Source: Candidatus Latescibacterota bacterium
Lineage (GTDB): Bacteria; Latescibacterota; UBA2968; UBA8231
Direction: 5' to 3'
DNA length: 64,000 nucleotides
Assembly (NCBI GenBank): GCA_965215195.1
Contig: CBDCDC010000002.1
Location: forward strand, 1,888,001-1,952,000
Positions 5,022 through 35,542 of this stretch are shown here, one piece after another (positions within the stretch are counted from its first letter, which is position 1; each line of letters starts with the position of its first letter). A model generated the notes under the pieces. That model saw nothing but the letters and a program-made list of their open reading frames with translations, was not told the DNA's origin and ran no database searches. Both the position numbers and the translations under genes were made by a program.

Positions 5022-7964
5022 ATGAGGATAGCTGCCATGAGTAGTAATGCGAGAAAAAGCCTGGTGAGGAGCGCGCTACTAGCGTTTGTTGGGTTGGGAA
5101 TGCTGGGTGCCGAAGCCGCAGCGCAGACCTTTCTGCGCAACCGGGATTTCCTCAACCTCGGCCATCCCGAACCGTATTTGAACTACGGGCGCAAGGAGTA
5201 CGATCCCTATCCTTCGGTGATCAACGCACGCAATCGCTACGACCGCTTAGGCAATTACCTGTCGCGCGGATTCAATGTCTTCACTTGGGAATTTTCCCGC
5301 CCCGGGGAAAGTAATATCAACACCCGTACGGCCCAGTACTTGGGATGGTTCGCCAACCTGGTGATGCTCAACGACTCGTACAAGGGTTGGAACTACCGCG
5401 TGACCTTGGGCGAGGACATCCGCGCCAAGTTTTCAGATCTGACCTTTAGCGACCCGCGCTTCTTTGGCATCCTGCTCGACGGCGCTTCCTCGGACAACAG
5501 GTTCACCCTGATGCTGAGCCAAGGCGGCGACCTGTTAAACGCCGCCAAGTTTTCGACCTTCAAAGCGACTCGGGAGACCTCACCGGTGTTGATCTTTGGC
5601 GGCCACTGGGAGACCAAGCTGGGCAATGTGCTGCGCATGGGTGCCACGTACTTCAACCAGCACATGGCCAATACGGCCGACGAGAACGGCTCCTTTCTCA
5701 AGGGCGATACCCCGTATAGCATGCTGCCGCCCTCTTTTATCGAAGTCATTGTCGAAGACGATTCGCCCGACGATATAGGCCGGGCGGCCACCGTCTATGA
5801 CGTGGATGTGGTGATCATCGGCGAGTCGCAGGGGCAGCGGGTGCGCCTGACCAGCATTGAAGGCGATCCCGAGTACGACTCGAGCCTAAAGATGATCGAT
5901 CCGGTTGGCGGGGCCGAGGGCGGGCTGACCATAGCCGGCGGCGACCAAGTGATCTTCCGCTTCCAAATGCCGCAATTCAACCTCCCGGATGCCGCGGAGT
6001 ACTCGGCCGATCCCGACGACTTTGTTCCGGGGCTGACGATGAGATCCGTGCGCTTCTTGGCCGATGTCGAGGGCGACTATCGCATTTTAGTGCGCCAACA
6101 GCACTTGTTCTTCGACCAGCGAGCCCACCAGAGAAACGTGGACAAAGTGGCCGAAGGGGACGACAGATACGTTCCGGGCGGCAGGAGCTACGTCAATCCT
6201 TTTACCGGCCTGAAAGGCGACGACGCAACCAAACCGCTCGAAGAGGTGCTGGCAGAAAATCCAGAAGCCTTTAATCAGTGGCCGGTGGTGCCGGAGCCGG
6301 GCACTACTCAGGCGTCGCCGTTTTTGCAGTACAAATGGGATCTGCTCGATCCGACCCGGGTAGGTTATACGGTCTTGCGCTCCGACGGCAGCGACTCGGG
6401 CCGCAAGGTAGTCGAGTTCGACTACGGCATCCCCACCGGTCAGGCCCTCTACGGGTTGGACTGGGACCTAAGCCTCAAAGGGCTAAAGGTAAAGGGCGAG
6501 CTGGTCGCCAATCCCCAGTACTTCCTCTTCCCGGTGGGCAGCAATGCCGGCAAGCGCTTTGACAAGCAGACCCTCGGCTATTTCCTCACGGCCCAAAAGG
6601 AAGTAGGCCCGCTCGAGATCGGGGGCGAAATTTTCAACCTAGATCCGGACTACAGCGGCAACTACGACAGCGACCGCGGCGGCGTGGCCTTCTTTAGCGA
6701 CGATTGCTTCGTGTGTCCACAGATGCAGGAAATGTCCGTGATGACCGACAATGACGACAACGACCAGTGGCCAGACGAGATGCTCAACGAGCTGCCCAGT
6801 GCCGAGAAGTCGGATTCGGGCATTTTTCCCGGCTTGGACGAAAACAACGACCTCATCCCGGACAGTGACCAGAATTTCAACGGCATTCCCGACTGGACTG
6901 AGCCAATCCTCTTTTACGACGCCGATCCGCCGGATTTCATCTACGGCATCGACTTCAACAACAACGGCGTAGTCGATTACCGCGAAAACGACGCCCTGCC
7001 CGACTATCCCTACCCGCGGGACCGCCGGGGGGGCCACTTCGTGGCCACCAAGAAAGGCTTGGGGCGCTGGGGCAAATGGGCCTCTGTAGGCTACTACACC
7101 ATAGAGGAGCCGGCCGGCGGCGGCGAGGCCAAGGCCCTGTACGCCCGCTATGAGCACAACTTCACCTCGCCCTATCTGGGGAAAATTCGCATCAACGAGG
7201 ACATCAAGCAGGTCCAAGACAACATCCGCGACGACGTGTACGTCTGGGAAGACGTGGGTTTTGCCCAGCGGATACCCAGCCCCTTCCCGCACTTGAAAGG
7301 TCCGATGATTGAGGCGCGGGATCTCAATTCGCAGATTTTTCCGCCAGATGTCGATCCCCTGAACATGCGCAATAGCTTGGTCAATACCTTGTTCATCAGC
7401 TCGACCTTTAGGCAGTTTTCCAACCTCAACGTCATCAACAACGTCCAGTGGATTCGCAACAGCCAAGCCGAGGACGAGTTCGACGACGGCACCCAACAGG
7501 CAGCCGGCGTGCTCTCGACCGTTACGGTGGTCAACCGGCTCGACTACACGATTAACGCCGGCAACCTGAACATCCGCCCGATGTTCAAGCACCTGTTCTT
7601 GCGCAAGCATTCAAGCGTACTCGAAGATGCGGGGGACGAAGACAACGGCATCATTGATTCGTTCTCGATTTACGCCCCGATAGTCAGGACCCGCTTTGAC
7701 CTGACGGCCAAGTCCAATCTGCAACTGGGCTTCCAAGGCTTCCCTTTCTGGCGACACACGAGTTTGGACCGCAAGGATGAGCACAACGACTTTAAGGAGT
7801 GGACGCTGGTGCTGATGATGAGCAACCGCTCGGATCACTACGGCTACAACCTCGCTTCCCAGTTCGGCTTTATCCGAACCAGCCGGGAGTACGACGATGC
7901 TACTCGCGCTTCGGATAGCTTCGACAACTCGCGCCTCTTCTTTGATATTGTGGCCGGGTTCTAA
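5022..7964 (+). CDS. Large secreted protein, putative outer-membrane beta-barrel with Asp-rich Ca-binding-like loops
   Basis: 980 aa; signal peptide ending AAA-Q; amphipathic strands; DNDDNDQWPD, GLDENNDLIPD, DQNFNGIPD and DFNNNGVVD motifs; terminal FDIVAGF. Confidence 0.7.
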   Translation: MRIAAMSSNARKSLVRSALLAFVGLGMLGAEAAAQTFLRNRDFLNLGHPEPYLNYGRKEYDPYPSVINARNRYDRLGNYLSRGFNVFTWEFSRPGESNINTRTAQYLGWFANLVMLNDSYKGWNYRVTLGEDIRAKFSDLTFSDPRFFGILLDGASSDNRFTLMLSQGGDLLNAAKFSTFKATRETSPVLIFGGHWETKLGNVLRMGATYFNQHMANTADENGSFLKGDTPYSMLPPSFIEVIVEDDSPDDIGRAATVYDVDVVIIGESQGQRVRLTSIEGDPEYDSSLKMIDPVGGAEGGLTIAGGDQVIFRFQMPQFNLPDAAEYSADPDDFVPGLTMRSVRFLADVEGDYRILVRQQHLFFDQRAHQRNVDKVAEGDDRYVPGGRSYVNPFTGLKGDDATKPLEEVLAENPEAFNQWPVVPEPGTTQASPFLQYKWDLLDPTRVGYTVLRSDGSDSGRKVVEFDYGIPTGQALYGLDWDLSLKGLKVKGELVANPQYFLFPVGSNAGKRFDKQTLGYFLTAQKEVGPLEIGGEIFNLDPDYSGNYDSDRGGVAFFSDDCFVCPQMQEMSVMTDNDDNDQWPDEMLNELPSAEKSDSGIFPGLDENNDLIPDSDQNFNGIPDWTEPILFYDADPPDFIYGIDFNNNGVVDYRENDALPDYPYPRDRRGGHFVATKKGLGRWGKWASVGYYTIEEPAGGGEAKALYARYEHNFTSPYLGKIRINEDIKQVQDNIRDDVYVWEDVGFAQRIPSPFPHLKGPMIEARDLNSQIFPPDVDPLNMRNSLVNTLFISSTFRQFSNLNVINNVQWIRNSQAEDEFDDGTQQAAGVLSTVTVVNRLDYTINAGNLNIRPMFKHLFLRKHSSVLEDAGDEDNGIIDSFSIYAPIVRTRFDLTAKSNLQLGFQGFPFWRHTSLDRKDEHNDFKEWTLVLMMSNRSDHYGYNLASQFGFIRTSREYDDATRASDSFDNSRLFFDIVAGF

Positions 7965-7983
7965 AGCTTAGGAGATCGACGCC

Positions 7984-10900
7984 ATGATTCTGGTAAATCT
8001 GCTGCTAATTGCAGCGGTCGGCGCGGCCGCCAGCCTGAGTACGCGCTTCTTCTCGCCGGTGGAATTGCAAGACCGCTTTGAGGAGGGGCAGAAGCTCTAT
8101 GCGCTAGGGGCCTACGACAAAGCCATTGAGCGCTATGAGGTCATTCTCTCCACCGAAAGCAACGCCATGATCAACGTGGAGGATGTAACCGTAGCGGTTG
8201 ACGAGTTCATCCTGCCGGTGCGCGTGGGTGCCACCTACCAGCTAGGCAATACCTACAACAAGCTCGGTCTGGAAAAATTGCAGCGCTCGCAGTTTTTGCG
8301 CTCGGAGAAAAAGGAGGCCGCGGCCGACGCTCGCTACGACGAGGCCCTGCAAGACCTCAACAAGAGCCGCGATCACTTCCGCACCCTGGCCGCAGACGAG
8401 CGCGTCGATAACCGCACCCGGGTGATGGCGCAGTACCAGATGATCCAGACGAGTTACCAGCTCAAGGAGTACGAGCAGGTCATTGAGGAAGGGGACGAGC
8501 TGCTGCACAGCTTCCCCCACAGCCTCTATGAAGCGTCCGTTCACTACGACCGCGCGTGGTCCTATTTTGAATTGGAGCGCTACGCGGAGGCCATCGCCAG
8601 CTTCAAGCAGGTCTTGGTCTTGGCCCCCAGAGGCTCCAACGCCGACCGCTCGCTCTTCCAGATCGCCGAGAGCTACGACAAGCTAGGGCAGTACGAAGAT
8701 GCGCTGGAGTACCTCGACCGCCTCGTCGCCCGCTACGACTTCGCGCAGATGACCGAGGAAGAAATCATCGAAATGACCACCCTCAAGCTCAAGGGTTTGG
8801 TCAAGGAGACCGCGCGCGAGCTAGTTGCCAAGGCCCACCTGAAAAAGGGCGATATCTACGCCCGCAACGGCGAGATCGAAAAGGCCCTCGCCGCCTATGC
8901 CGTGCTTCCGGCCGAATACGCGGCCGAGCCGGTCTTGGTGCAAAATAGCTATATCCGCACGGCCGAGTTGGTGCAGAAGGAGCAGGGCACGACAGCGGCC
9001 ATTGCCGCGTACAAGGACGCCATCGAAAAGGTTGAGGACAAGCTCTTTCAGGCCCGCACCCAGCTAACGGTCGCCCTGATGCTTTTCGACCAGGACGAGT
9101 ACCTCAAGTCGGCCCAGGAATACGAGATCTACCTCAACGCCTACGGCGACGTGGCCCAGCGCATTGGCTTCGACCGCTACAAGGTTCTCTTTCGCATCGC
9201 CCAGTGCCACCAAGAATACGGGCGGCAGATCCGCAGCGAGGACCCGGCTGGAGCGGACGCGGAAATCGCCGAGGCCCGCAAAAGCTACGACCAGCTCCTG
9301 AGCCAGCGCGCGGACAATTCCCTGATCCCGGACGTGCTTTTTAACGCCGGCTTTGCCAACCAGCTCCTAGAGAACGACCAAGCAGCTCAGCCCCTGTACC
9401 AGCGGTTAGTCGACGAGTATCCAGCGCATCCAGCGGCCCCCAACGGCCTTTTGCAGTTGGCCCGCATCGCCTATGCCGCATCCGAGCTCAAACGGGCCGA
9501 GGCGATTTATACGTCCTTCCTCGACCGCTTCCCGGATTCGGCACTGCGCAATACGACGCGGATGGAGCTGGGCCTCACCTACAAGCACCTCGAGGATACA
9601 GATAGCGCCATCGCCGCCTATGAGACGGTGGAAGCGGATTGGGACAAGTGGCCTACCGTGCAGGTCGAGTTGGCCGAGCTGTACATGGGCAAGCAAGAGT
9701 ACGCCAAGGCGCGTCAGGCCCTGTCTCGCGCCTTGGGCCGAGCCGGCGACGACACCCTAAGAGGCCAGATGCACTACACCTTGGCCCGGGTGCATTTTGC
9801 AGAGGACAATTTCGCCAGTGCGATCCGCGCTTGGGGCGAGGCCATTGCCCTGAATCCGCCCGCGCACCTCCTGCAAAACTCGCTGCTGGCGCGCGGCGGT
9901 GCGTATTACGAGGTCGCCAAACAGCAAGACGCGGTCGGCGACACGGCCGAGGCCCGCACGAGCTATGAGGCATCGCTGGAGGATATGAAGGCCCTGCTCG
10001 AAGGCGATCCCGCGCCCCAGATCAAGGACAGCGCCTTCCGCACGCTGGGGGCGGGCATGATCCGCTTGGGGCGGCAAGAAGAGGCGGCGCGGTACTACCA
10101 AGAGCTCATTGCCGCGTCGGCCGACCTCCAAGAGCAGGCCACCTTTAGCATGCTGCTGACCGAGCTGTACTACGATCAGCAGGATTTCGTCCAAGCCGAA
10201 AAATTCGCCCGCCAGCTCCTCGACATGCAGTTTGAAGACGACAATCAAGCTGGTTACTACCGCAAAGAACGCGCCTATTCCATCATCGGCAACGCGCTGC
10301 TACAGCAGCAGCAGTACGAGGAAGCCGCTCGCGTCTTTGCCCGAGGTCTCAAGCGCTATCCGAATTCGGGCGAGAGCGGCAACTTGGCCTTCTCCAAGGG
10401 TTTTGCCGAAATCAGCTACGGCGACTACGCCACCGCTGCCGAGAGCTTCCGGGCCTTTGTCCGCAAATATCCGCGCAATGCCAACCGCATTCACGGCCAG
10501 TACTATCTGGCCCACAGCCTCCAGGCCCTGACCCAGTTTGAGGAGGCTGCGGCCGCTTTTGCCGCGCTCGTCGAGCGCCATCCCCAGTCCCAATACGAGG
10601 AAGAAGCGCTTTTTCTCATTGGCGAAAACTACTACAACGAGCAGGCCTTTGCCGAAGCCGCGACCGCCTACCAAGTGCTCTTGGCCAAATATGCCCAAGG
10701 CCAATACGGCGGGTCGGCCCAGTACGCGTTGGCTTGGTCCTTCGTCGAACAAGAACAGATGGAGCAAGCAGTAGGCGCGATGCAAAACCTAGTGGCCAAT
10801 TACCCCGACAGCGAGTTCGCCCCCAAGGCGCAGTTTACCATTGGCGACTACTACTACAATATCCAGTCTTACGACGAGGCCATGGCCGCCTACAAGCAAG

Positions 10901-27300: not shown

Positions 27301-29006
27301 TGACCTTTACGGCCCAGGCCTTCACCTCGGTGCAGAGCTATCTCAAGTTCTATCAGATCCCCCGCCCGAATGCGCCCAGCTACGAAGGGGCCCTGCTGCG
27401 CGACCGCGGCTGGAAGGGCTTGCAGCTATCGGTGCTCGACTATGCAGAGAGCGCGTTTGGCGACCGAGCGCAGGTGCTGCCGAGGTCGTGGGTGACCTCC
27501 AAGGTCATTGGCGAGCGGGCCTATATCGACATTGAACACAAGCTGGCGCAGAAGAAGAGCTTTGCCTCGGCCCTCCTCGGGGTGACCCCGGGCGAGGGCG
27601 CGGTGATGGGGTTGGAGGGGCTGTTGGTGGGGCCGGCGAGCCGCTGGTTTGCGGCCGGCGAGCGCGATGTGTGCATCCTGCCGGTGGCTATGGCCGCGAT
27701 CTTGGGCATTGGCCCGGACAAGGTGGGCACGGCCCACATTGGGCTGATGGGGCGGTCCTATCGGGTCATTGGCTTAATCGACGGCGAGGCCATTGACCGG
27801 CTGCGCGACTTGGACAACGAGAGCCTGATGCCCGTGGACACGGTCGCCGAGGCCAAGAAGATGGAGGAAATGGCCGGCTTGGACCCGCGCCTGATGGACA
27901 CGGCCGCGATTGAGACCTTTACCCATCTGCTGGCCAACAACGTGGCGTTCTTGCCCTACCAGCAGGTCGTCGATTTGGGCGGTACGCTGCGCTCCATTGC
28001 CATTGCCGGCTTTGCCGATCGGGAGACCTTGCTCGCCGAGGTTGAGGAATTCGTGTCGCGGGTGGCCGTGCCGCTCTTTGTCGGGGCTGGCGACCGCGTG
28101 CGGGTGTACACGTCCATGGGATCGGCGTCTTTGGCCGGGATTGGCAACCTCTTCGTGCCCTTGTTGATCGCCTCGCTGATCGTGCTCAACACCATGCTCG
28201 GGGCCGTGTACGAGCGCTCCGGCGAGATCGGGGTGTATTCGTCGGTGGGGCTGGCGCCGAGCCACATTGCCGCGCTCTTCATGGCCGAGGCCCTCGTGTT
28301 TGCCATTGTCGGCGCGGTGCTGGGCTATTTGGTCGGGCAGACCACGACCCTGCTGCTGGCGCACTACGCGCTCTTGAGCGGAATGTTTCTCAACTACTCG
28401 TCGCTGTCGGCGATCTTCTCGACCTTGATCGTAATGGTGGTGGTGGTGCTCTCGACCCTGTATCCGGCGCGCAAGGCCGCGGCCATGGCCGTGCCCGACG
28501 TGACGCGGCGCTGGGAGTTTCCCCCGCCCGATGGCGACGACTGGCGCTTTGACTTCCCCTTTACGCTGGGCAAGGGCGATGCCTTGGGCTCGTGCGCGTA
28601 CTTGCACCGGGTCTTTTCGTCCTATGGCGAGGGATCGGTGGGCGACTTTATGACCGAGGGCGTGGATTTCCACTTGGAGCAGGGCGGCGCACAGCCGGTC
28701 TATTTGCTGGAGCTGATGGTGTGGCTCGCGCCCTACGACTTGGGGGTGAGCCAGCGGGTGTTCCTACGCACCTTGCCGACCGACGACATTCCGGGCATTT
28801 ACCGCATTGAGATGCACTTACAGCGCATAAGCGGCGATGTGGTGAGCTGGCAGCGGCTCAACACCAGCTTCCTCAATGTGCTGCGCAAGCGCTTCTTGGT
28901 CTGGCGGACGATTGCGCCCGAAGTGCGAGAGGAATACTTGATTGAGGGCGAGAAGTTGGCGCAGGGGACGGGGGTGGCGCAACCACAAGTTCTAGATATT
29001 AGCTGA
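24393..29006 (+). CDS. M28-peptidase-like/PA domain fused to a MacB/FtsX-like permease
   Basis: FGSRVPGY, NVYGYLPG, IVIQAYYD...PGAENAAG M28-like motifs; SNLRKRKLRTALT and AVYERSGEIGVYSSVG...FMAEA FtsX motifs. Probable start MSKLL at 24393. Confidence 0.8.
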   Translation: MSKLLNVSFLLFAAAMIAVVGFGDPGAINQAVNDFFGWAPNPPVETRLVDPAQAAQLRALVADIDEADIAAAIARFAAFGSRVPGYDGERQARDYVRQRFEALGLENVQSEAFTVAVPIDRGGELVVQGERKRLYSLWPNGVRTPSLGPDGVRGPLIYGGELTALDGQQVEGSVVLMDFGCGQQYLHAASLGAKAIVFFDNGGVNREQAADKFLKVPVDIPRFWLERRDALALLARLQDGPVAVHLNARMDWQGVEAHNVYGYLPGSPQMLPAKSREKPQAWQEQTIVIQAYYDAISVVPALAPGAENAAGIVALLQLVELLKAHRPHYSVLFLATSGHFQGLSGINDFLYRHSRRSDYFRERMSAAERIDFDLMLSLDLSSHADRTASFGMGTFYNPKWRTDNYVKYMLTPYSKRLSLAVEETFGDTTRHYEGIAPPKRTWKNFMPIPLAFASEAAAFVGYKALALATANDAREHIDTPLDLPEAVDVHNLTRQIRTLAAMLAWAGRDAELLKPTKLELEDYGHSLAGAIYWFDRDVNFAVPKKPVPQALVTYQQLGTNSVGGVRTLIAQEADDAGRFHFDIMRNKLDNAIRAYELDPYGAIISAPDMGQEGDETYPTMHPWGWWENEMLQVLFKCRALSLFETVDSRYLSVLDHVTVLDERDGVPQSWGADFVEKQSNEEGKVTLAAVVYAQPGTRVKVLMSTSLFGVRYLLSGAPAEWVAEPVRPADVDEPMIEQALGRGYPVDRGVVLRPGYAAARDMWVLDDVRIKQLARYGVRNDKFMRLHEEARLALLEAEEHLQAQRYSEFKRATRKAWGLEGRGYPDIKSTADDTVYGVIFYFALLLPFSFCCERLFFGFADIRRQVAGAAFFFLAIFLVMRFIHPAFKLSSSPYIIFLAFVIFAIGGTALLMILGRFTRAVGQRKRAAAGVHEADIGRLSATAAAASLGISNLRKRKLRTALTVVTLTLLTFTAQAFTSVQSYLKFYQIPRPNAPSYEGALLRDRGWKGLQLSVLDYAESAFGDRAQVLPRSWVTSKVIGERAYIDIEHKLAQKKSFASALLGVTPGEGAVMGLEGLLVGPASRWFAAGERDVCILPVAMAAILGIGPDKVGTAHIGLMGRSYRVIGLIDGEAIDRLRDLDNESLMPVDTVAEAKKMEEMAGLDPRLMDTAAIETFTHLLANNVAFLPYQQVVDLGGTLRSIAIAGFADRETLLAEVEEFVSRVAVPLFVGAGDRVRVYTSMGSASLAGIGNLFVPLLIASLIVLNTMLGAVYERSGEIGVYSSVGLAPSHIAALFMAEALVFAIVGAVLGYLVGQTTTLLLAHYALLSGMFLNYSSLSAIFSTLIVMVVVVLSTLYPARKAAAMAVPDVTRRWEFPPPDGDDWRFDFPFTLGKGDALGSCAYLHRVFSSYGEGSVGDFMTEGVDFHLEQGGAQPVYLLELMVWLAPYDLGVSQRVFLRTLPTDDIPGIYRIEMHLQRISGDVVSWQRLNTSFLNVLRKRFLVWRTIAPEVREEYLIEGEKLAQGTGVAQPQVLDIS

Positions 29007-29037
29007 CTGAGAAAGACGCCTTAGCACTGTTCGGAGA

Positions 29038-29472
29038 TTATTCCTCTTTTACGGCACCCAACTGCATCGCCGGGTTCTCGATTTTTTCTTTGGAGGCGGC
29101 GGTAGCGAGTTTTTGATCGAAGGTCGCCAGCTTGGCCTTGCGGCGGATGGCTGTTGCCAAATAGCTGGCATCGTATACAGTCAGGTCGTGGCGTTGTGCG
29201 AGGTCCAGAACCGTGGCTTCGTCGCGTGCGGTGTCCTCGCATAATGAAAGCTCGTCCGCGAGCTGAATCAGGCAGGTATCAAAATGCCGTTGGTCTATGC
29301 GCTTACGACGTTTCGCCCTGAGCAAAACGTTGCGAATCTCATACCAAAAAATGATCGGCGCGATGCGCTTTTCGGTATCCAATTGTTCCAGCAAAGCGCG
29401 GGCAAAGTCACTATGCTCTTCGTCGGGCAGTAGCTGGGCCGCTATCACCGAAGCGTCGATTACCGTAGCCAT
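29038..29472 (-). CDS. vapC: VapC/PIN-domain toxin
   Basis: VIDASV, YEIRN, LTVYDASYL and LATFDQKL retain all four PIN acidic residues. The ATG overlaps the Res stop codon (TGATG). Confidence 0.9.
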   Translation of the reverse strand: MATVIDASVIAAQLLPDEEHSDFARALLEQLDTEKRIAPIIFWYEIRNVLLRAKRRKRIDQRHFDTCLIQLADELSLCEDTARDEATVLDLAQRHDLTVYDASYLATAIRRKAKLATFDQKLATAASKEKIENPAMQLGAVKEE

Positions 29473-32312
29473 CAACGCCGGCCCTCTTCTTTCCAGTGGC
29501 GAATTTCCTGCTGCGTCACCGGCCGCATCTGCCGCTGGCGTTCACTCGATGTTTTAAGTGCTCTTCTCCAGATGAACGCGCCCAATGTCGGGTACTCGGT
29601 GGTAAACTCGTCTTGGTTGATGCGCGTGTACTTCCAAGATTTGCCGGTGATTTTGCTTACGCGCTTGCACCAGTCCCGCGCTGCGGCGTCCTTTTCGGCA
29701 GTGCCTTCCCAGACTCGGCCTTTGGTTTCGATGATCCAGTTCACTTCGCTGCCTTGGGTCTCTTGGACCACTACCCAGTCGGGATAGTAGAAGCCGATGG
29801 CACCGCTAGGCTTTAGATAGTCGATGCGGAACACGGTTCCGGAATTGCCCTGTTCCGTCGTCCCAAGTGCTGCGAAGCGCACGACATCTCCGGAGCGGTC
29901 CAAGAACGCTGCGAAGCTACGCTCAAAGCCGTTGTAGGTGGCGACGAAATTGAAAATAGTTTTCTTCGCCTCCAACGGCGGCAAGTTTCTTCTCCAGCTA
30001 AAGGGTTTCGTCAGGGATAGACGATAATCCTCTTTCTCGAACTCGACTGTACGCCGCTCGATGGTGAGCGCAGCGATCTCGCGGGCCATGTATCTGGCAA
30101 TACCCTCCTGCAACTCTAGCCGTGCCAGATGCGAGCGGATAGTTCCATCGGCCAGTTCGATTTTTCGCCCAAAACAACGGTTCACCACATAGTCCTGCAC
30201 AAGCGGATACATCTCCGCGAAGCAGTTGGTTAGCTTGGCATAATCAGCGGTCTTGTTGGCAATGCTCGCTAGAAGCTCTTGGGCGGGCCGTGGCTCCATA
30301 GCAATGTCGGCTTGATGTACCTCAGTCGCCGTGGTTGTGAATTGCATCTTCAGGCTGACCTGAAACGGTTCGGCTAGTTCTTCTTGGTCGAAAATCGCTT
30401 CAAGCGAATACACATCCAAGGTGGACAGCTTGCGGAAATTATGCGTTAGGCTTGGCTTGGTGACTGGAATAGCGATGTCGTACTTCAGCCGCTCTTGCAC
30501 AGGCCCGATGATGACCGGCAGCGGCGGATTGGTGTCAGTACTGGCTATACCGACTCCCTCGGCTTCCAGTTGATCTCGTAGGACTTTGAGCAAGTTTCGC
30601 GTGCCAAGCACCTCTAGGGTCTGCGTTTGGTCGGGGCTTACCTGTGTCATCAGGCGCAGTCCGCGACCAATCACCTGTTCCGGGAGTATCTCGGCTTGTG
30701 CAGTGAAAGGCCGCAATCCCAGTACCACTGTCACGTTGCGTACGTCCCACCCTTCGCGCAGCATCATCACGCTGACAATAGCTTTAATTTTACTCTCGGC
30801 CTTGTCGATGTCTCGCGCTGCTTGCCGCGCCTTGTCAATGTCTCCTTTTCGAACTTCTCCCGTATTGTTCGTGTGGATGATAAGCACCTCGGATTCCTTG
30901 AAGCCGAATTCCTTGGTCTTCCACAGGCACTTCCCCAAGGCGTCTGCATAGAGATTCTTCTCAGCCATGACAAAAAGTACCGGCCTAGTGTTGAGCTTGT
31001 TGTAGGTTTGCCAGTGTTCCTTCCAGCGCTGCACAGCGGCCTGTAGCCAGTAGCCGTACTTCTCCGCCACGTTTTCCTTGGTAACCCCGTCGGGGTCTTC
31101 GGTTGGCTGATTCGGATCATTCTCTTTGGTGACGATGAGCGGTGCCTTGACGATTTTGTCCTCCACGGCTTGTGCCAACGGGTAGTCCACAACCGTCCAA
31201 GGGAAGTACATGCCATTTTGGTCTTTCGGCGTGGCCGAAAAGTCGAGCCAAGCGTAGAGGCCCTGTGGCAGAGAGTTGTGAATGGCGAGCAGCGATTGAC
31301 TCCAAGCCAAGTCCTCGTCGTGGACGTGATGTGCTTCGTCATTTAGCACGACGAGGTCCTTTAGCGATTTCACGCGCTCCAGCGTGGAGTGCTGACCGGA
31401 TGACGCGAGGTCCTGTGCGGGCTTCTTGCCCAAGAGGGCTTCAACGGCATTTTCCGGTGTCCACTCCTCGTCGCAAGATTCGTAGAGTTGGTGAATGTTG
31501 GTGAGGAATAGATTCCCGGACGGGTCTGGCTCGGCGGCCTCGCCGCGCAGAATCACCTTTTGCGCGAAGCTGCCTTTCCACTCTGGTGGGATCAAGGGCA
31601 ATTCATGGAATATCCGGTTGTCGGCAAAATCCTTTTCTAATCGCTGATAGACGATCACATTGGGGGCGACGATGAGGAAGTTCGTGGAGAGATCCGAGCC
31701 GGGTACGCGCTGCTTGTGGAAGCGCGACCAGACGACCGCCATGGCCATCACCCAGGTTTTGCCCGAACCAGTGGCCATCTTGAAGGCGAAACGGCGCAGG
31801 TCTTCGGGCGGTAAGTCTTGGACGCCGTCTCGGTCCAGTTCCGGCACGTAGCGACGAAGCTGTCGCTGGCCGTTCATTGTGGTCTGAAATTCGATATTAT
31901 TCGAGAATAAGTCTTTCTGAGTAATTTTTCCGTACGTCTCAATGAGTGCCTTGGCATCTCGCTGCCCGGCGATCTCTACTAGCCACACCAGCGTCTCGAT
32001 CGCTTCGCGTTGGCAGAAGTAGTATCGGAAAGGCGCATCAAATCCGTTTACCGTATGATCCTCCTCAAACCAATACTCAAACAAGCGTCGAGCGACTCCC
32101 GATGCCCCCTCGTAACCACTGTCGCGCCAAGCATCTACGGCCTTGCGGATTTTCGGCACTAGCAGGAGTTGGCTCGGGCGGCGGCCGGATTCCTCGCGCC
32201 AGCCGGTCGGCGCGTCGTCGTCCTTGACCAAGTAGGAAGCGGGCCTTTCCCACGGGCGGCGACCCTGAATTTCCGGTAGGTCCTTGTCGTAATTGATGAC
32301 AGCTTTTGCCAT
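29472..32312 (-). CDS. Type III restriction endonuclease Res subunit (SF2 helicase + PD-(D/E)XK nuclease) with a C-terminal extension
   Basis: YFCQREAIET, MATGSGKT, NDEAHH, FSATP, LREGWDV, EQVIGRGLR and YPDWVV...IIETKG motifs. Confidence 0.9.
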   Translation of the reverse strand: MAKAVINYDKDLPEIQGRRPWERPASYLVKDDDAPTGWREESGRRPSQLLLVPKIRKAVDAWRDSGYEGASGVARRLFEYWFEEDHTVNGFDAPFRYYFCQREAIETLVWLVEIAGQRDAKALIETYGKITQKDLFSNNIEFQTTMNGQRQLRRYVPELDRDGVQDLPPEDLRRFAFKMATGSGKTWVMAMAVVWSRFHKQRVPGSDLSTNFLIVAPNVIVYQRLEKDFADNRIFHELPLIPPEWKGSFAQKVILRGEAAEPDPSGNLFLTNIHQLYESCDEEWTPENAVEALLGKKPAQDLASSGQHSTLERVKSLKDLVVLNDEAHHVHDEDLAWSQSLLAIHNSLPQGLYAWLDFSATPKDQNGMYFPWTVVDYPLAQAVEDKIVKAPLIVTKENDPNQPTEDPDGVTKENVAEKYGYWLQAAVQRWKEHWQTYNKLNTRPVLFVMAEKNLYADALGKCLWKTKEFGFKESEVLIIHTNNTGEVRKGDIDKARQAARDIDKAESKIKAIVSVMMLREGWDVRNVTVVLGLRPFTAQAEILPEQVIGRGLRLMTQVSPDQTQTLEVLGTRNLLKVLRDQLEAEGVGIASTDTNPPLPVIIGPVQERLKYDIAIPVTKPSLTHNFRKLSTLDVYSLEAIFDQEELAEPFQVSLKMQFTTTATEVHQADIAMEPRPAQELLASIANKTADYAKLTNCFAEMYPLVQDYVVNRCFGRKIELADGTIRSHLARLELQEGIARYMAREIAALTIERRTVEFEKEDYRLSLTKPFSWRRNLPPLEAKKTIFNFVATYNGFERSFAAFLDRSGDVVRFAALGTTEQGNSGTVFRIDYLKPSGAIGFYYPDWVVVQETQGSEVNWIIETKGRVWEGTAEKDAAARDWCKRVSKITGKSWKYTRINQDEFTTEYPTLGAFIWRRALKTSSERQRQMRPVTQQEIRHWKEEGRR

Positions 32313-32314
32313 GG

Positions 32315-32508
32315 CTATTTCACCTCAACATCAAGAGCTTGCGAGGTATCGTTGCCAAAGATGTCGATTACTTTGACCAGCACTCGGTATTTGCCGGACT
32401 TCTCGTAAGTGTGGGAGTCGGAAATGAGTGGGAGCCTTCGATCTTTACGCGTGCGGTAGGCGACCCATCCCTGCATGATTCGGTCTTCGTGATGTCGATC
32501 TTCGCCAT
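32315..32508 (-). pseudogene. Type III Mod methyltransferase remnant with a large internal deletion
   Basis: ATG-MAKIDITKTE is joined out of frame to WVAYRTRKDRRLPL...GKYRVLVKVIDIFGNDT, which resembles a Mod C-terminus. No DPPY or FxGxG motif remains. It sits 2 nt upstream of res. Confidence 0.75.
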
Positions 32509-32578
32509 TATTCCGCTCCTTGGATTTGCTCAAATACTCACGATCTTAGATGAGGATGTCAAAGTCAGCAGGCATCAT
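32498..32578 (-). pseudogene. Collapsed second copy of the AlbA-ATPase gene (ends only)
   Basis: Reads MMPADFDILI*DREYLSKSKERNNGED, matching the start (MTPADLDILI) and end (RDYLHKFKGRDNGED) of 33421..34887. Confidence 0.75.
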
Positions 32579-32759
32579 GCGCTCCCTCCGTCCATCCAAT
32601 AACGCCTTCCGCACGGCGCATCAACCGCAGATCGCATTCTTGGCAAATTTTCGCCTCGGTCTGAATTCGGTTGAACGGGCTGTCGAGATGGCCAATAACC
32701 TCGCGCTGACTGCCGCTGAGTTCCGGGTAGTGCTTTAGGATGGCGAGCGCGATGCTCAC
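32565..32759 (-). pseudogene. UvrD-like helicase/nuclease remnant (ends only)
   Basis: ELSGSQREVIGHLDSP (UvrD Q-motif region, cut just before Walker A) is fused to KICQECDLR (Cys tail typical of PD-(D/E)XK/AddB-like ends). Confidence 0.55.
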
Positions 32760-33376
32760 AACAGCCCCGCCTTCCTAAAGCTGAAGGTCTCCGACGCCGA
32801 CACGATTAGATGCTCGACAACCCGAAGGCTAATGGTTTCGGCGGCCAGTACGATGGCCCGCGTGACTACCTTGTCTTGTGCGCTCGGCTCGACATTGCCA
32901 TTCGGATGGTTGTGCGCGAGTACGAGTGCCGCTGCTTGGCGCTTGAGCGCGGACTCCACGACGCGGCGCGGATACACCGCTGCTCGATCAATTGTGCCTT
33001 CCTGAAGCGTTTCGACGCCGTCGCGGAGTAGCCGATGTGCGGAGTCGAGGTATGCCACGGCGAACACCTCGTGCTTGAGGTGACCGATCCGCATGCGCCA
33101 GAAGTCGCCGAGCCGCTCTGGGTCGCGCAGCACTTCCGCTTCCCCTGATGCTTCCTGCAAGTAGAGCGTCGCCGATTCGCGGATGACTTTCAGGGAGATC
33201 GCGGCGACCTCGCCGATGCCCGGCACTGACCGCAACTCGGTTAGCGGCGCGTCCAAAACACCTCGCAGGCTGCCGAAGCGCTTGAGCAGTGCCTTGGCTT
33301 GTTGCTTCACGTCCGAGCGGGGGATGGCCAAGGTCAACAGCAACTCAATGACCTCGTGTTCGGCGAATCCCGCCAA
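32756..33376 (-). CDS. radC: RadC/JAB domain protein, 5' end apparently frameshifted
   Basis: ELLLTLAIPR, LLKRFGSL, VPGIG, GTIDRAAVYPR and AHNHPNG..EPS..D motifs. The natural ATG (MAKTEAH*) at about 33434 is out of frame with RLCQRFLKSG. Confidence 0.85.
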   Translation of the reverse strand: MAGFAEHEVIELLLTLAIPRSDVKQQAKALLKRFGSLRGVLDAPLTELRSVPGIGEVAAISLKVIRESATLYLQEASGEAEVLRDPERLGDFWRMRIGHLKHEVFAVAYLDSAHRLLRDGVETLQEGTIDRAAVYPRRVVESALKRQAAALVLAHNHPNGNVEPSAQDKVVTRAIVLAAETISLRVVEHLIVSASETFSFRKAGLL

Positions 33377-33420
33377 GCCGCTCTTGAGGAAGCGTTGGCA
33401 AAGACGATTACTAGTGAGCC

Positions 33421-34887
33421 TCAGTCTTCGCCATTATCCCGCCCTTTGAATTTGTGCAAATAGTCGCGTCCCGCCGGCGTCAGGCGATAGCACTGCTTTT
33501 TGCTGCGCGGCTTGTCGGGGATGGTCATTTCGATCAAGCCGGCTTGCAGGGCGGGCAATAGGTAGGTTTTGCGGACGTGTTTGGTATTCTTCAGGCCCAA
33601 GGCTTCTTGGATCTGCCTTCTGTTCATCTCGCCCGATATTACCCCTAAAAGACGCACTGCCCCGGTATCTTGGGGGGTAACTTCCCCGGTATCTTGGGGG
33701 GTATCTTGAGGGGTAACTTGGGGGGTAACTTCCCGGGTAACTTGATCTTCTAGTGCCCGCACCTCGGGGTCCGGCCGGAAAACAACGACAAAAAAGGCAC
33801 CCCGAATCTTAAATTCCGGTTCCGGGCAGCCCTGCTCCCGCGCCTCGTCCCGAATACGGCGAATACCAGTGCCCGCTTTCTCGATAAACTCAATGCGGTG
33901 GAGCAGATCGGCGATAAGTGGATTGCGACGGATGCTCTCGCGGCCGAGTTCGGCCAACTTCAGGCCCGTTGGCAGGCCGCCGGGACTTATCACCTCAATG
34001 CGATTGGCGTAGATCTCGACGAAGACGTTGGCACCCTCGAAAAACCAATCGCGGTGCATGACCGCGTTGGTGATGGCCTCGCGCAGCGCCTTCATCGGGT
34101 ATTCCGGGACGTTTTCGCGGCGCAGGCTTTCAATGCGATAGGCCGTGCGGGTATTGCGCTCAATGAAACCCAAGGCGTCCTCAATGTCGGCCACGATGCC
34201 GCCGTCAAAATCGCGGCGGTCGAGGATACGCACTTTGTCCGCGCCTTTGCCGAGCAGGCAGGTGATGTAGGCTTCGGAGAAGAAGTGCCGCACGTTCTTG
34301 GCGAAGAAGAGCACCCCCGCGTTGCGGAAGAGTAGCTTATCGCCCGCCCGCTCGGCCGCCTCGATGTTGACCAGCACGTCTTCAAGCGGCGGTTGTCCAC
34401 TGATGCCGGACAGCTTGAGCCAAGCGTCGTACTTCTCGCGGTCGAAGTCCTCCGGGTAGCGGAAACGAGGACAGGGCGAGAGATCAAACCGGATCACGCC
34501 CTCGCTGCGGAAGAAATCGCGGATTTCGTCGCGGCTGAGCTTTTGGGTCACCGCGCCCTGACGCCAGAAGAAGCCTTCGCTGCATTGCACCGGCTTGGCG
34601 TCGCTTTCCCGGACATGCACTGCGAATACGTCATCCACCGGCTCCACCAGTACCTTCACCGGGGGGTCGCAATTGCGGGCGATGTCCTGAATGCGGGCGC
34701 GCAGGGCATTGGAGTCCTTGACGCCGGTCACAGTGCCGTCATCGCGCACCCCGAGCAGGAGCTTGCCCCCAACTGTGTTGGCCATGGCCACCAGTTCTCG
34801 TGAGAACGACGACGAGAGGCCCTCTTTGAACTCAAGCGTGGTCCCTTCGCCTTGCTGAATGAGAATATCGAGGTCCGCAGGTGTCAT
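33421..34887 (-). CDS. AlbA_2 (Schlafen-like) + HATPase_c_4 + wHTH protein (RecG-C-like ATP-binding regulator)
   Basis: GEGTTLEFKE, AMANTVGG.LLLGV.DDG, ALREAITNAVMHRD, ISPGGL, RNPLIA, IEKAGTGI and IPDKPRSKKQCYRLT motifs. Confidence 0.88.
   Translation of the reverse strand: MTPADLDILIQQGEGTTLEFKEGLSSSFSRELVAMANTVGGKLLLGVRDDGTVTGVKDSNALRARIQDIARNCDPPVKVLVEPVDDVFAVHVRESDAKPVQCSEGFFWRQGAVTQKLSRDEIRDFFRSEGVIRFDLSPCPRFRYPEDFDREKYDAWLKLSGISGQPPLEDVLVNIEAAERAGDKLLFRNAGVLFFAKNVRHFFSEAYITCLLGKGADKVRILDRRDFDGGIVADIEDALGFIERNTRTAYRIESLRRENVPEYPMKALREAITNAVMHRDWFFEGANVFVEIYANRIEVISPGGLPTGLKLAELGRESIRRNPLIADLLHRIEFIEKAGTGIRRIRDEAREQGCPEPEFKIRGAFFVVVFRPDPEVRALEDQVTREVTPQVTPQDTPQDTGEVTPQDTGAVRLLGVISGEMNRRQIQEALGLKNTKHVRKTYLLPALQAGLIEMTIPDKPRSKKQCYRLTPAGRDYLHKFKGRDNGED
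33661..33744 (-). repeat. In-frame 12-bp tandem repeat, about 7 units
   Basis: Encodes QVTR EVTP QVTP QDTP QDTG EVTP QDTG. Confidence 0.85.
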
Positions 34888-35144
34888 AGATTCTGAAGTA
34901 GTCGGAGCAGCTTAGTTGTGGAATCCCGCACTGCGTGATGGAGTTGGCCGCTGATATGCCTCAATTGATAGGGTTTGCTCGCTCGATGTCAAGCTGGTGG
35001 GGATGCTAGCAAGCGGCATTGTCTCGCCTCCGTCGTCCTATACTTTAGTGGCAAGCAAAAAGACGATGGAAAACCGAGCGAATTACGCGCTGTTGGCGAC
35101 CTCGCGAAACTTGGTGCCCGGCGTTAGGTAAGGAGGATGAGACA

Positions 35145-35351
35145 ATGAGACAAGCGATTATTTACCGAGGCGAAGATGGCTATTGGGTTGCTGAATGCCC
35201 TAGCTTGCCCGGTTGTATCAGCCAAGGGAAAACAAAGCAAGAAGCCATCGCCAACCTCAGAGAGGCGATTGAAGGGTACATTCTTTCCCTTGAGGAGGAT
35301 GGACTATTGGTTCCTAAAGAACAGTTTGAGGCATTGGTAGTAGCCGTGTGA
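35145..35351 (+). CDS. hicB: Short HicB family antitoxin (no DNA-binding domain)
   Basis: EDGYWVAECPSLPGCISQGKTKQEAIANLREAI; AGGAGG RBS. Confidence 0.9.
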   Translation: MRQAIIYRGEDGYWVAECPSLPGCISQGKTKQEAIANLREAIEGYILSLEEDGLLVPKEQFEALVVAV

Positions 35352-35542
35352 GCCGATTGCCGAGAATTTCAGGGAGAGCCTGCGTCAATGCACTCGGCAA
35401 AGTTGGTTTTTACCATAAACGCCAGCACGGTAGCCATATAATTCTGCGTCGATTCGCTCAAGTCGTCATTCCCGATCACAAAGAACTGGATAGGATCAGA
35501 CAAGCTGACCTTGGTGTAGAAGAGTTTGTACGATTACTGTGA
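35348..35542 (+). CDS. hicA: HicA family toxin, possibly degenerate
   Basis: LPRISG...GFYHKRQHGSHIILRR..VIPDHKELD..IRQA. Shorter than usual and lacks the GTLxxI segment. Confidence 0.75.
   Translation: MSRLPRISGRACVNALGKVGFYHKRQHGSHIILRRFAQVVIPDHKELDRIRQADLGVEEFVRLL

Follow-up and report, generated by a model that had tools for sequence, protein, structure and literature searches.

Three gene scars ahead of res and vapC: probably a defence operon of a known kind, late in its decay

Why should three neighbouring genes lose their interiors and keep their ends, at a place where the genes downstream of them are intact? The question is raised by a 445-bp stretch (32759-32315, minus strand) of the 64,000 nucleotides of Candidatus Latescibacterota DNA that were analysed here as a whole and are called the window. 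These 445 bp consist of the ends of genes for a UvrD-Cas4 helicase-nuclease, a Schlafen/AlbA-type ATPase and a Type III Mod methyltransferase, with radC upstream and intact res and vapC downstream. The genes of the region are all encoded on the minus strand, and a HicB/HicA pair sits immediately upstream on the opposite strand. An earlier note on this DNA had described three genes cut to their first and last codons within 32315-32759, and remnants of all three are indeed present there on the minus strand. The interior DNA that is missing amounts to about 5.7 kb (2679 nt of helicase, 1657 nt of mod and about 1.4 kb of ATPase, the last an estimate from a 488-aa paralogue), in keeping with the several kilobases that had been supposed. 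The features of the locus are as follows.

33421..34887, minus strand: intact gene for a Schlafen/AlbA_2 - HATPase_c_4 - wHTH ATPase, 488 aa (Pfam)
33411..33434, minus strand: native start of radC, ATG at 33434-33432 (alignment with the radC 5' ends of L002, L003 and L005)
32756..33376, minus strand: body of radC, 206 aa from an internal TTG, RadC JAB domain (Pfam RadC 1.6e-35)
32565..32759, minus strand: scar of the UvrD-Cas4 helicase-nuclease gene, a 64-aa in-frame ORF; 5' piece 32759-32678, island 32677-32660, 3' piece 32659-32565 (comparison with L003)
32498..32578, minus strand: scar of the second ATPase gene; start codons (10) 32578-32549, TAA 32548-32546, end codons (16) 32545-32498 (match to both ends of the window's intact gene)
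32315..32508, minus strand: scar of Type III mod (comparison with L003, tblastn)
29472..32312, minus strand: intact Type III res, 946 aa (Pfam ResIII 2.9e-17; PADLOC REase_III 2.2e-19)
29475..29609, minus strand: C-terminal 45 residues of Res, the last 16 of which match the C-terminal tail of VapC's Phd-family antitoxins
29038..29472, minus strand: vapC, a PIN-domain toxin gene (Pfam PIN 4.9e-15) whose ATG overlaps the res stop

With the Res protein as query and one genome taken per species, 419 relatives were found, from which 80 loci were kept, and a gene map of every kept locus was built by tblastn with reference proteins. The usual order in these relatives is radC, a helicase gene of about 955 codons, often an AlbA-type ATPase gene, mod and res, with vapC following res in one branch; the gene content from radC to mod is highly variable across the 80 loci. 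The closest intact locus, L003, reads ATPase, radC, helicase, ATPase scar, mod, res, vapC.

The 959-aa helicase protein of L003 has a UvrD-helicase domain (residues 16-290; Pfam 6e-65) and a PDDEXK_1/Cas4 nuclease domain (residues 704-942; 1.6e-25), whereas the 64-aa ORF of the window corresponds to its residues 1-28 and approximately 891-953 (tblastn on the window alone, E 1e-7 and 5e-9) and is no longer a UvrD-Cas4 protein. Two deletions separate the one from the other, 2652 nt at 32678/32677 and 27 nt at 32660/32659; both are multiples of three, both have the same size against L003, L004, L006 and L018, and an island of 15-18 nt is left between them. The ORF runs without interruption from native start to native stop. 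The larger junction lies at an imperfect direct repeat of 12-13 nt, formed by the codons after the conserved H-L-D-G-P and H-F-D-E-T, and the smaller has at most 1-2 nt of homology. The 'CxxCD tail' that had been remarked upon in this ORF is the beginning of the nuclease's C-x2-C-x5-C motif, the third cysteine of which is substituted in the window. In a database ORF that comes from a different assembly (P0001; 79 aa, 91% identical, 1.7-Mb contig), the window's first helicase junction is present without the 27-nt loss; P0001 is one base out of frame in the very stretch that the 27-nt loss affects, and reads on into the ATPase scar.

The intact ATPase gene, a paralogue situated upstream of the collapsed copy, occupies the same place here as in L002 and L003. 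Its product carries SLFN_AlbA_2 (7.7e-18), HATPase_c_4 (1.3e-24) and Fic-like_C (4e-22) domains by Pfam, and thus the AlbA_2 and HATPase_c_4 pair that defines the type, neither member of which is left in the 10 + 16 codons of the scar. As the earlier note had it, the scar matches both termini of the window's own gene at 34887-33421, with a 5' match of 29 nt and a 3' match of 44 nt (82%); the native stop is gone, and the AAGGAG of mod lies inside the 3' piece. Nucleotide alignment with six loci that have an intact ATPase gene between helicase and mod was too noisy for breakpoints, which were taken instead from the window's paralogue and from L003-L005. The L003 scar has the identical start piece, TAA and end piece; that of L004 is open over 21 codons, with CAA in place of the window's TAA; in L005 the first codons of the helicase gene are fused to the scar, and in L002 the 3' piece alone is left. 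In both the window and L004 the start and end pieces share a frame, which makes it probable that the first loss preserved the frame and that the stop arose afterwards. In the more distant L008, L012 and L014 the sole ATPase gene stands between helicase and mod. The 44-nt repeat (82%) is present at the 3' end of the upstream ATPase gene and in the scar, running into the next ATG, with its copies 926 nt apart; radC in L002 and L005 starts with the same first three residues as mod. It would appear from these sequences that the ATPase gene was duplicated together with the first bases of mod ahead of radC, and that the redundant original then collapsed.

In the mod scar, ten start codons (32508-32479, with the ATG at 32508) represent the start of Mod, and the 3' part (32478-32315) its last 56-58 or so codons with the stop; 32478-32318 encodes Mod residues 559-616 (E 1e-22). 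The two parts are joined out of frame at 32479/32478, the loss being 1657 nt (3n+1) against each of L003, L004, L006 and L018, with at most 1 nt of microhomology. The L003 Mod matches PADLOC MTase_III from end to end (9e-129), and the UvrD and Mod identities, which the earlier note had based on motifs, were in this way borne out by Pfam and PADLOC on the L003 proteins. The N6_N4 methyltransferase domain (residues 98-342 in the L003 Mod) is missing from the remnant, which is no longer a methyltransferase by domain content, and tblastn found no further mod in the 64-kb window; with Res present and the Mod domain absent, the window no longer holds a Type III restriction-modification system as these are defined. 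A 72-aa ORF begins in the ATPase scar and reaches the native mod stop 2 nt ahead of res. A near-length search with it gave 137 hits, each of which is the C-terminal part of a Mod, and as all of them lack the window's junction the latter is without independent confirmation; the deletion was found in the window alone. Upstream, the native ATG of radC overlaps the 3' end of the intact ATPase gene; a loss of 10 nt between 33412 and 33411 shifts the radC frame, and a TAG is reached after seven codons. Residues 13-229 of the 229 in RadC are covered in the window by tblastn, and the gene is probably dead or N-terminally truncated.

The window has four deletion junctions, each with different flanks. 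These represent at least four separate deletions, made at different times, since the ATPase scar is common to L003, L004 and L005 and the helicase junction is common to P0001. The earlier proposal of separate deletions in place of a single large one was therefore correct, and comparison with intact loci supplied the breakpoints and microhomologies. That same comparison indicates that the downstream ATPase copy went first, then 2652 nt of the helicase gene, and later the 27 nt; neither the mod deletion nor the radC lesion is present in the intact relatives used for comparison, among them L003, and the order is fixed for the ATPase and helicase steps only, with the mod and radC lesions not placed relative to the 27-nt loss or to each other. 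In any case, the scars are genuinely what is left of three pseudogenes: they match full-length homologues at both termini, the domains are gone, and there are secondary lesions in the form of the TAA at the ATPase junction, the lost cysteine and the frame change in mod.

It had also been noted that gene junctions, ribosome-binding sequences and overlaps survive, and to a point they do. The stop of radC and the GTG that opens the helicase scar overlap, AAGGAG stands 7 nt ahead of the mod ATG, and GAGGTG, which sits within the mod 3' piece, stands 8 nt ahead of the res ATG. However, the coupling chain is broken at three places, by the frameshift in radC, the TAA within the ATPase scar and the deletion in mod, which is out of frame, and because of this selection for coupling cannot act in the window now. 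With its own Shine-Dalgarno sequence, res is independent of coupling. The window is a late state of a process and not a case of active coupling maintenance. Rfam gave no matches over 28900-35400 (E up to 0.1), and a promoter and terminator scan of 28900-35300 gave three promoter-like sites against 2.7 expected, none of them inside the scars. A 14-nt inverted repeat at the radC/helicase junction (32732-32781) was considered as a coupling hairpin and set aside, sequence conservation being all that speaks for it. RNAalifold on 31 of the 46 extracted junctions (in the 15 omitted, the helicase 5' end is lost or unlike the common form) gave no consensus structure; the named helix is paired in 72.7% of cells, compared with 73.2% for shuffled alignments, and there was no excess of covariation.

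Many further loci have helicase, ATPase or mod genes that collapsed at breakpoints of their own; the breakpoints vary by locus and fall within coding sequence. The 80 kept loci and two database ORFs were surveyed for reading frame, with the following result for the large collapses.

In-frame helicase collapses: the window, L007 (662 codons lost), L008 (784 codons lost), L005, L025, L053 and L029 (two joins)
In-frame ATPase collapses: the shared scar, the upstream copy of L005, L019/L028, L024, L034 and L050
In-frame mod collapses: L040 and the database ORF P0002
Out-of-frame collapses (4): mod of the window, helicase of L045, helicase of L026 and ATPase of L026

Sixteen of the 20 classifiable collapses are in frame, where one third would be expected (p = 2.5e-5), a count that was read by eye from ORF maps and in which the merging of identical junctions is the only correction for kinship; with four doubtful or possibly dependent in-frame cases dropped, 12 of 16 remain (p = 8e-4). 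The count omits L055 and L063, whose 5' side is absent; L002 and L042, which have degenerate 3' remnants only; L054, a replacement; L071, where the 3' end of mod is lost; L020 and L030, in which the N-terminal domain differs with no deletion; L046, a full-length gene with a frameshift; and the frameshifted mod and res of L007 and L008. Deletions below 100 nt were likewise omitted; among these small ones, the losses of 27 nt in the window and 13 codons in L029 preserve the frame, and that of about 28 codons in L053 does not. In operons, nonsense and frameshift lesions are polar, and in-frame deletions are the customary means of avoiding polarity. The in-frame excess points to selection against polar lesions, as judged from the sequences of the family. 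Several of the truncated ATPases retain their C-terminal HTH half, and a function of their own, not polarity, could be the reason for the frame; this is the weaker alternative. As such, the earlier suggestion of selection preserving expression finds a footing in the family, in these frames and in the Res tail described below, but not in the window itself, where the chain is broken. For its other half, that selection acted to remove the proteins, we found no evidence; the usual decay by deletion of genes that are dispensable or present twice suffices.

The 946-aa Res has the helicase-like ATPase and the endonuclease of its type, the latter by a RE_endonuc match of 18.1 bits that lies under the cut-off of 23.4, and is 86% identical to those of L002 and L003 over 946-947 aligned residues. 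Identity at codon positions 1+2 is 0.92 versus 0.66-0.71 at four-fold sites, which indicates that res overall is under purifying selection. In 29 loci, the window included, Res is extended at its C-terminus by some 40 residues, which close with a conserved acidic-basic motif, and vapC follows res directly in 27 of these 29 versus none of the 52 tail-less loci. VapC is a PIN-domain toxin by its residues D6, E45, D101 and D119, invariant in 23 sequences. No separate antitoxin gene was seen, there being no small ORF between res and vapC and no PhdYeFM match in Res. Plasmid homologues of this VapC (45% identity, 130 records) are paired with Phd/YefM antitoxins, and the C-terminus of P0122, the closer of two such antitoxins that were translated, is identical to the Res tail at 11 of 16 positions (E 3e-7, as a single comparison); the second (P0123) has only its closing residues in common with the tail. 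The match falls outside the Phd domain (residues 1-46), and NCBIfam returned no family for two 45-residue Res tails. On these grounds we infer that Res carries the toxin-neutralising tail of a VapC antitoxin. Such an antitoxin-like tail would explain the survival of res without mod. In three loci (the window, L054 and L071) mod is destroyed and both res and vapC run without interruption, and the two loci with a frameshifted res, L007 and L008, are both without the tail and without vapC. A Type III Res without Mod cannot recognise DNA, for which reason the loss of mod disarms restriction safely.

Taken together, we consider it probable (roughly 0.7) that the window represents a defence operon of a known kind, far advanced in its decay, in which deletions were filtered for being non-polar and res was retained as the putative antitoxin of VapC. 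The operon would have run from a Schlafen-type ATPase gene through radC, UvrD-Cas4, in some cases a second ATPase gene, and Type III mod to res and vapC. Copying of the ATPase gene with the first bases of mod to a place ahead of radC would have allowed the downstream copy to collapse. The gene ends may have persisted as carriers of their neighbours' expression signals, namely the stop/start overlaps of radC with helicase and of helicase with ATPase, and the Shine-Dalgarno sequence and start of the next gene within each 3' end. As long as distal genes were still needed, only internal, non-polar deletions would be tolerated, and it is for this reason that in-frame collapses would dominate the family; repeated, nested deletions would then shrink a gene down to the parts with its neighbours' signals. 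After the loss of mod, res would stay uninterrupted inasmuch as its tail is the antitoxin, and a nonsense or frameshift lesion in it would free VapC. Res alone would be harmless, unable to find DNA, and the locus would now amount to a res-vapC addiction pair with scars upstream.

A stronger version of the same idea is one that we put forward tentatively, as it seems to us more doubtful than not. The Res tail and VapC could form a lock built into this Type III family, with the toxin silent only as long as full-length Res is made and the scars as the footprint of that constraint. Were this so, res could not be lost by nonsense or frameshift and the upstream operon could shrink only by deletions that are non-polar, most of them in frame; VapC might, furthermore, be freed as a second line of defence when a phage inhibits or destroys Res. 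The 27-nt loss in the helicase scar might even be a second hit that restored the frame, in view of the one-base shift of P0001 in that region.

Somewhat less probable, and in our estimation unlikely, is purely neutral decay, in which random deletions strike dispensable genes with no regard to frame or coupling, mod was lost recently, and ends remain because a deletion past them would hurt a neighbour that is still useful. The out-of-frame deletion in the window's mod and the frameshift in radC are what such a process would be expected to leave. The 5' piece of the ATPase scar also differs by about as much as four-fold sites do (window versus L003, 73% over 48 nt, set beside 71% for res at 380 four-fold sites, and 93% over 57 nt for the 3' piece with the mod start; the scar comparisons comprise few sites). 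Furthermore, gene ends are not always kept: the 3' end of mod is gone in L071 and the whole helicase gene in L002 and L050, and L045 and L053 have two helicase codons left. Against this, neutrality does not predict that 16 of 20 collapses be in frame, that three separate loci with a dead mod retain uninterrupted res and vapC, or that the Res tail be so closely linked to vapC.

That the 64-aa and 72-aa ORFs are functional mini-proteins or regulators, kept for their own activity, is very improbable. The first is open from native start to native stop and the second ends at the native mod stop; yet among 5.8 billion proteins the 64-aa ORF has a single near-length match (P0001), frameshifted over its second half, it has lost the third cysteine of its cluster, and neither Pfam nor NCBIfam has a match to it. 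The 72-aa ORF shows sub-threshold PKD matches only in Pfam, and its first 20% is covered by none of its 137 near-length hits. We think equally little of an exchange of cassettes, in which the conserved junctions would be recombination sites that swap interiors and the scars would be empty slots. The 44-nt junction does occur twice in the window, the content between radC and mod does vary among the loci, and the mod 3' junctions of the window and P0002 are near-identical, but breakpoints are locus-specific and inside coding sequence with no fixed site, the 80-locus map has no recombinase gene in its conserved gene set, and the scars decay on by point mutation, with stops and a lost cysteine. 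Least credible is an assembly artefact that dropped the interiors, for example by collapse between similar sequences, for which the repeat at the large helicase junction might be cited, as that junction recurs in the independent record P0001, the ATPase scar is found in four other assemblies (several of them complete chromosomes), similar scars with other breakpoints lie in many loci, and the junction repeats, with no more than 1 nt of homology at mod, are far too short to confuse an assembler.

How much of this is already known? Genes for UvrD-Cas4 fusions have Type III Mod and Res as their commonest neighbourhood, with a Schlafen-like ATPase-HTH protein sometimes present (Hudaiberdiev et al. 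2017, PMC5704561), and the intact loci L003, L012 and L014 have the same gene set and order as the operon type in the portion of that paper seen here. Compared with this type, the window has its helicase-nuclease gene, one ATPase copy and mod reduced to scars. In that portion of the text radC has no occurrence, and vapC, collapsed copies and a Res tail go unmentioned. The intact operon type is therefore known already from computational work, and the scars taken alone are ordinary gene decay; what goes beyond this is the in-frame excess across the family and the antitoxin-like tail of Res. In the titles and abstracts of the literature searched, no account was found of an in-frame bias of natural gene scars in restriction operons, nor of a restriction subunit ending in a VapC antitoxin tail. 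The pairs of Phd/YefM and VapC on Rhizobium and Cereibacter plasmids (L081 and L082) have a homologous VapC, a similar tail and an antitoxin frame that ends at the toxin start, but Res is without the Phd/YefM DNA-binding domain, and its tail is the end of a 946-aa restriction subunit. In the EcoprrI-PrrC system a latent anticodon nuclease is held in check by a Type I restriction enzyme. The arrangement proposed here would resemble it, as an RNase toxin silenced by physical association with a restriction enzyme and set free when that enzyme is lost or inhibited; it differs in having a PIN protein in place of PrrC, a Type III in place of a Type Ic enzyme, and a putative fused antitoxin peptide as the link between the two.

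The decay path at this locus is stepwise and dated, its order of losses being readable from related loci. Operon polarity has been studied in constructed mutants, whereas here its effects are inferred from a natural series of loci, which provides comparative evidence that polarity filters the deletions that survive. If the Res tail is in fact an antitoxin, a restriction enzyme and toxin-antitoxin addiction or guarding would be combined in one polypeptide, and the existence of orphan res genes would be explained.

At the downstream end of the operon, two features of the minus strand lie side by side:

29475-29609, minus strand: C-terminal tail region of Res, its last 16 residues matching the tails of Phd/YefM antitoxins
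29038-29472, minus strand: vapC, adjoining the Res tail

By sequence comparison, the final 16 residues of Res, the Type III restriction subunit, match the C-terminal tail of Phd/YefM antitoxins. The antitoxins that carry this Res-like tail are plasmid-borne and are partnered with homologous VapC toxins. At the res-vapC locus of the window we observe no separate antitoxin gene beside vapC, and among the loci compared vapC accompanies the tail in 27 of 29 cases, versus none of the 52 loci in which Res lacks it.

Destruction of the methyltransferase gene mod is found elsewhere. In two proteobacterial loci, L054 (Gammaproteobacteria; mod region 6800-9200) and L071 (Paracoccaceae; mod region 9414-10000), mod is destroyed while res and vapC are uninterrupted; the 3' end of mod is missing in L071, and as such the mod-res junction is not kept in every locus. 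A further collapsed Mod, the database ORF P0002 (123 aa, on a 1.2-kb contig), keeps residues 1-67 and the last 56 residues of Mod as a single in-frame fusion. Its 3' junction falls only about 4 nt away from that of the window's mod, a near-coincidence which, as read from the sequences, points either to a second deletion nested with the first or to a hot spot at this place.

Gene content also varies among the related loci. Many (L011, L021, L043, L044, L057, L065 and L076) have about 3 kb of other coding sequence replacing the ATPase gene between the helicase gene and mod, and the mod-res spacing is about 0.4-0.8 kb in L014, L019, L025 and others. In six loci (L001-L006), from genomes labelled Latescibacterota, Chloroflexota and Gemmatimonadota, Res is 81-86% identical to that of the window, which argues that the operon moves between phyla. 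Upstream of the operon, in divergent orientation, is a toxin-antitoxin pair, which marks the region as a small defence/toxin-antitoxin island:

35145-35351, plus strand: HicB-like antitoxin gene (Pfam, 5.5e-8)
35348-35542, plus strand: HicA toxin gene (Pfam, 1.1e-8)

The gene junctions themselves carry repeats, and one lies beside a short deletion:

33411-33434, minus strand: native start region of radC, with a 10-nt deletion after codon 7
33425-33468 and 32499-32542: 44-nt direct repeat (82%), at the ATPase-radC and scar-mod junctions
32732-32781: 14-nt inverted repeat (93% complementary), flanking the overlap between the stop of radC and the start of the helicase gene

The native ATG of radC overlaps the 3' end of the ATPase gene and, owing to the 10-nt loss, reads into a TAG; the 206-aa radC ORF restarts at an internal TTG. 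Over the 31 loci compared, the arms of the inverted repeat pair in 72.7% of cells, and their covariation showed no excess over shuffles. Each copy of the direct repeat comprises the ATPase 3' end plus the next ATG, which suggests a duplication that placed the ATPase gene, with the first bases of mod, onto radC. If the two copies recombined, radC would be lost together with the scars.
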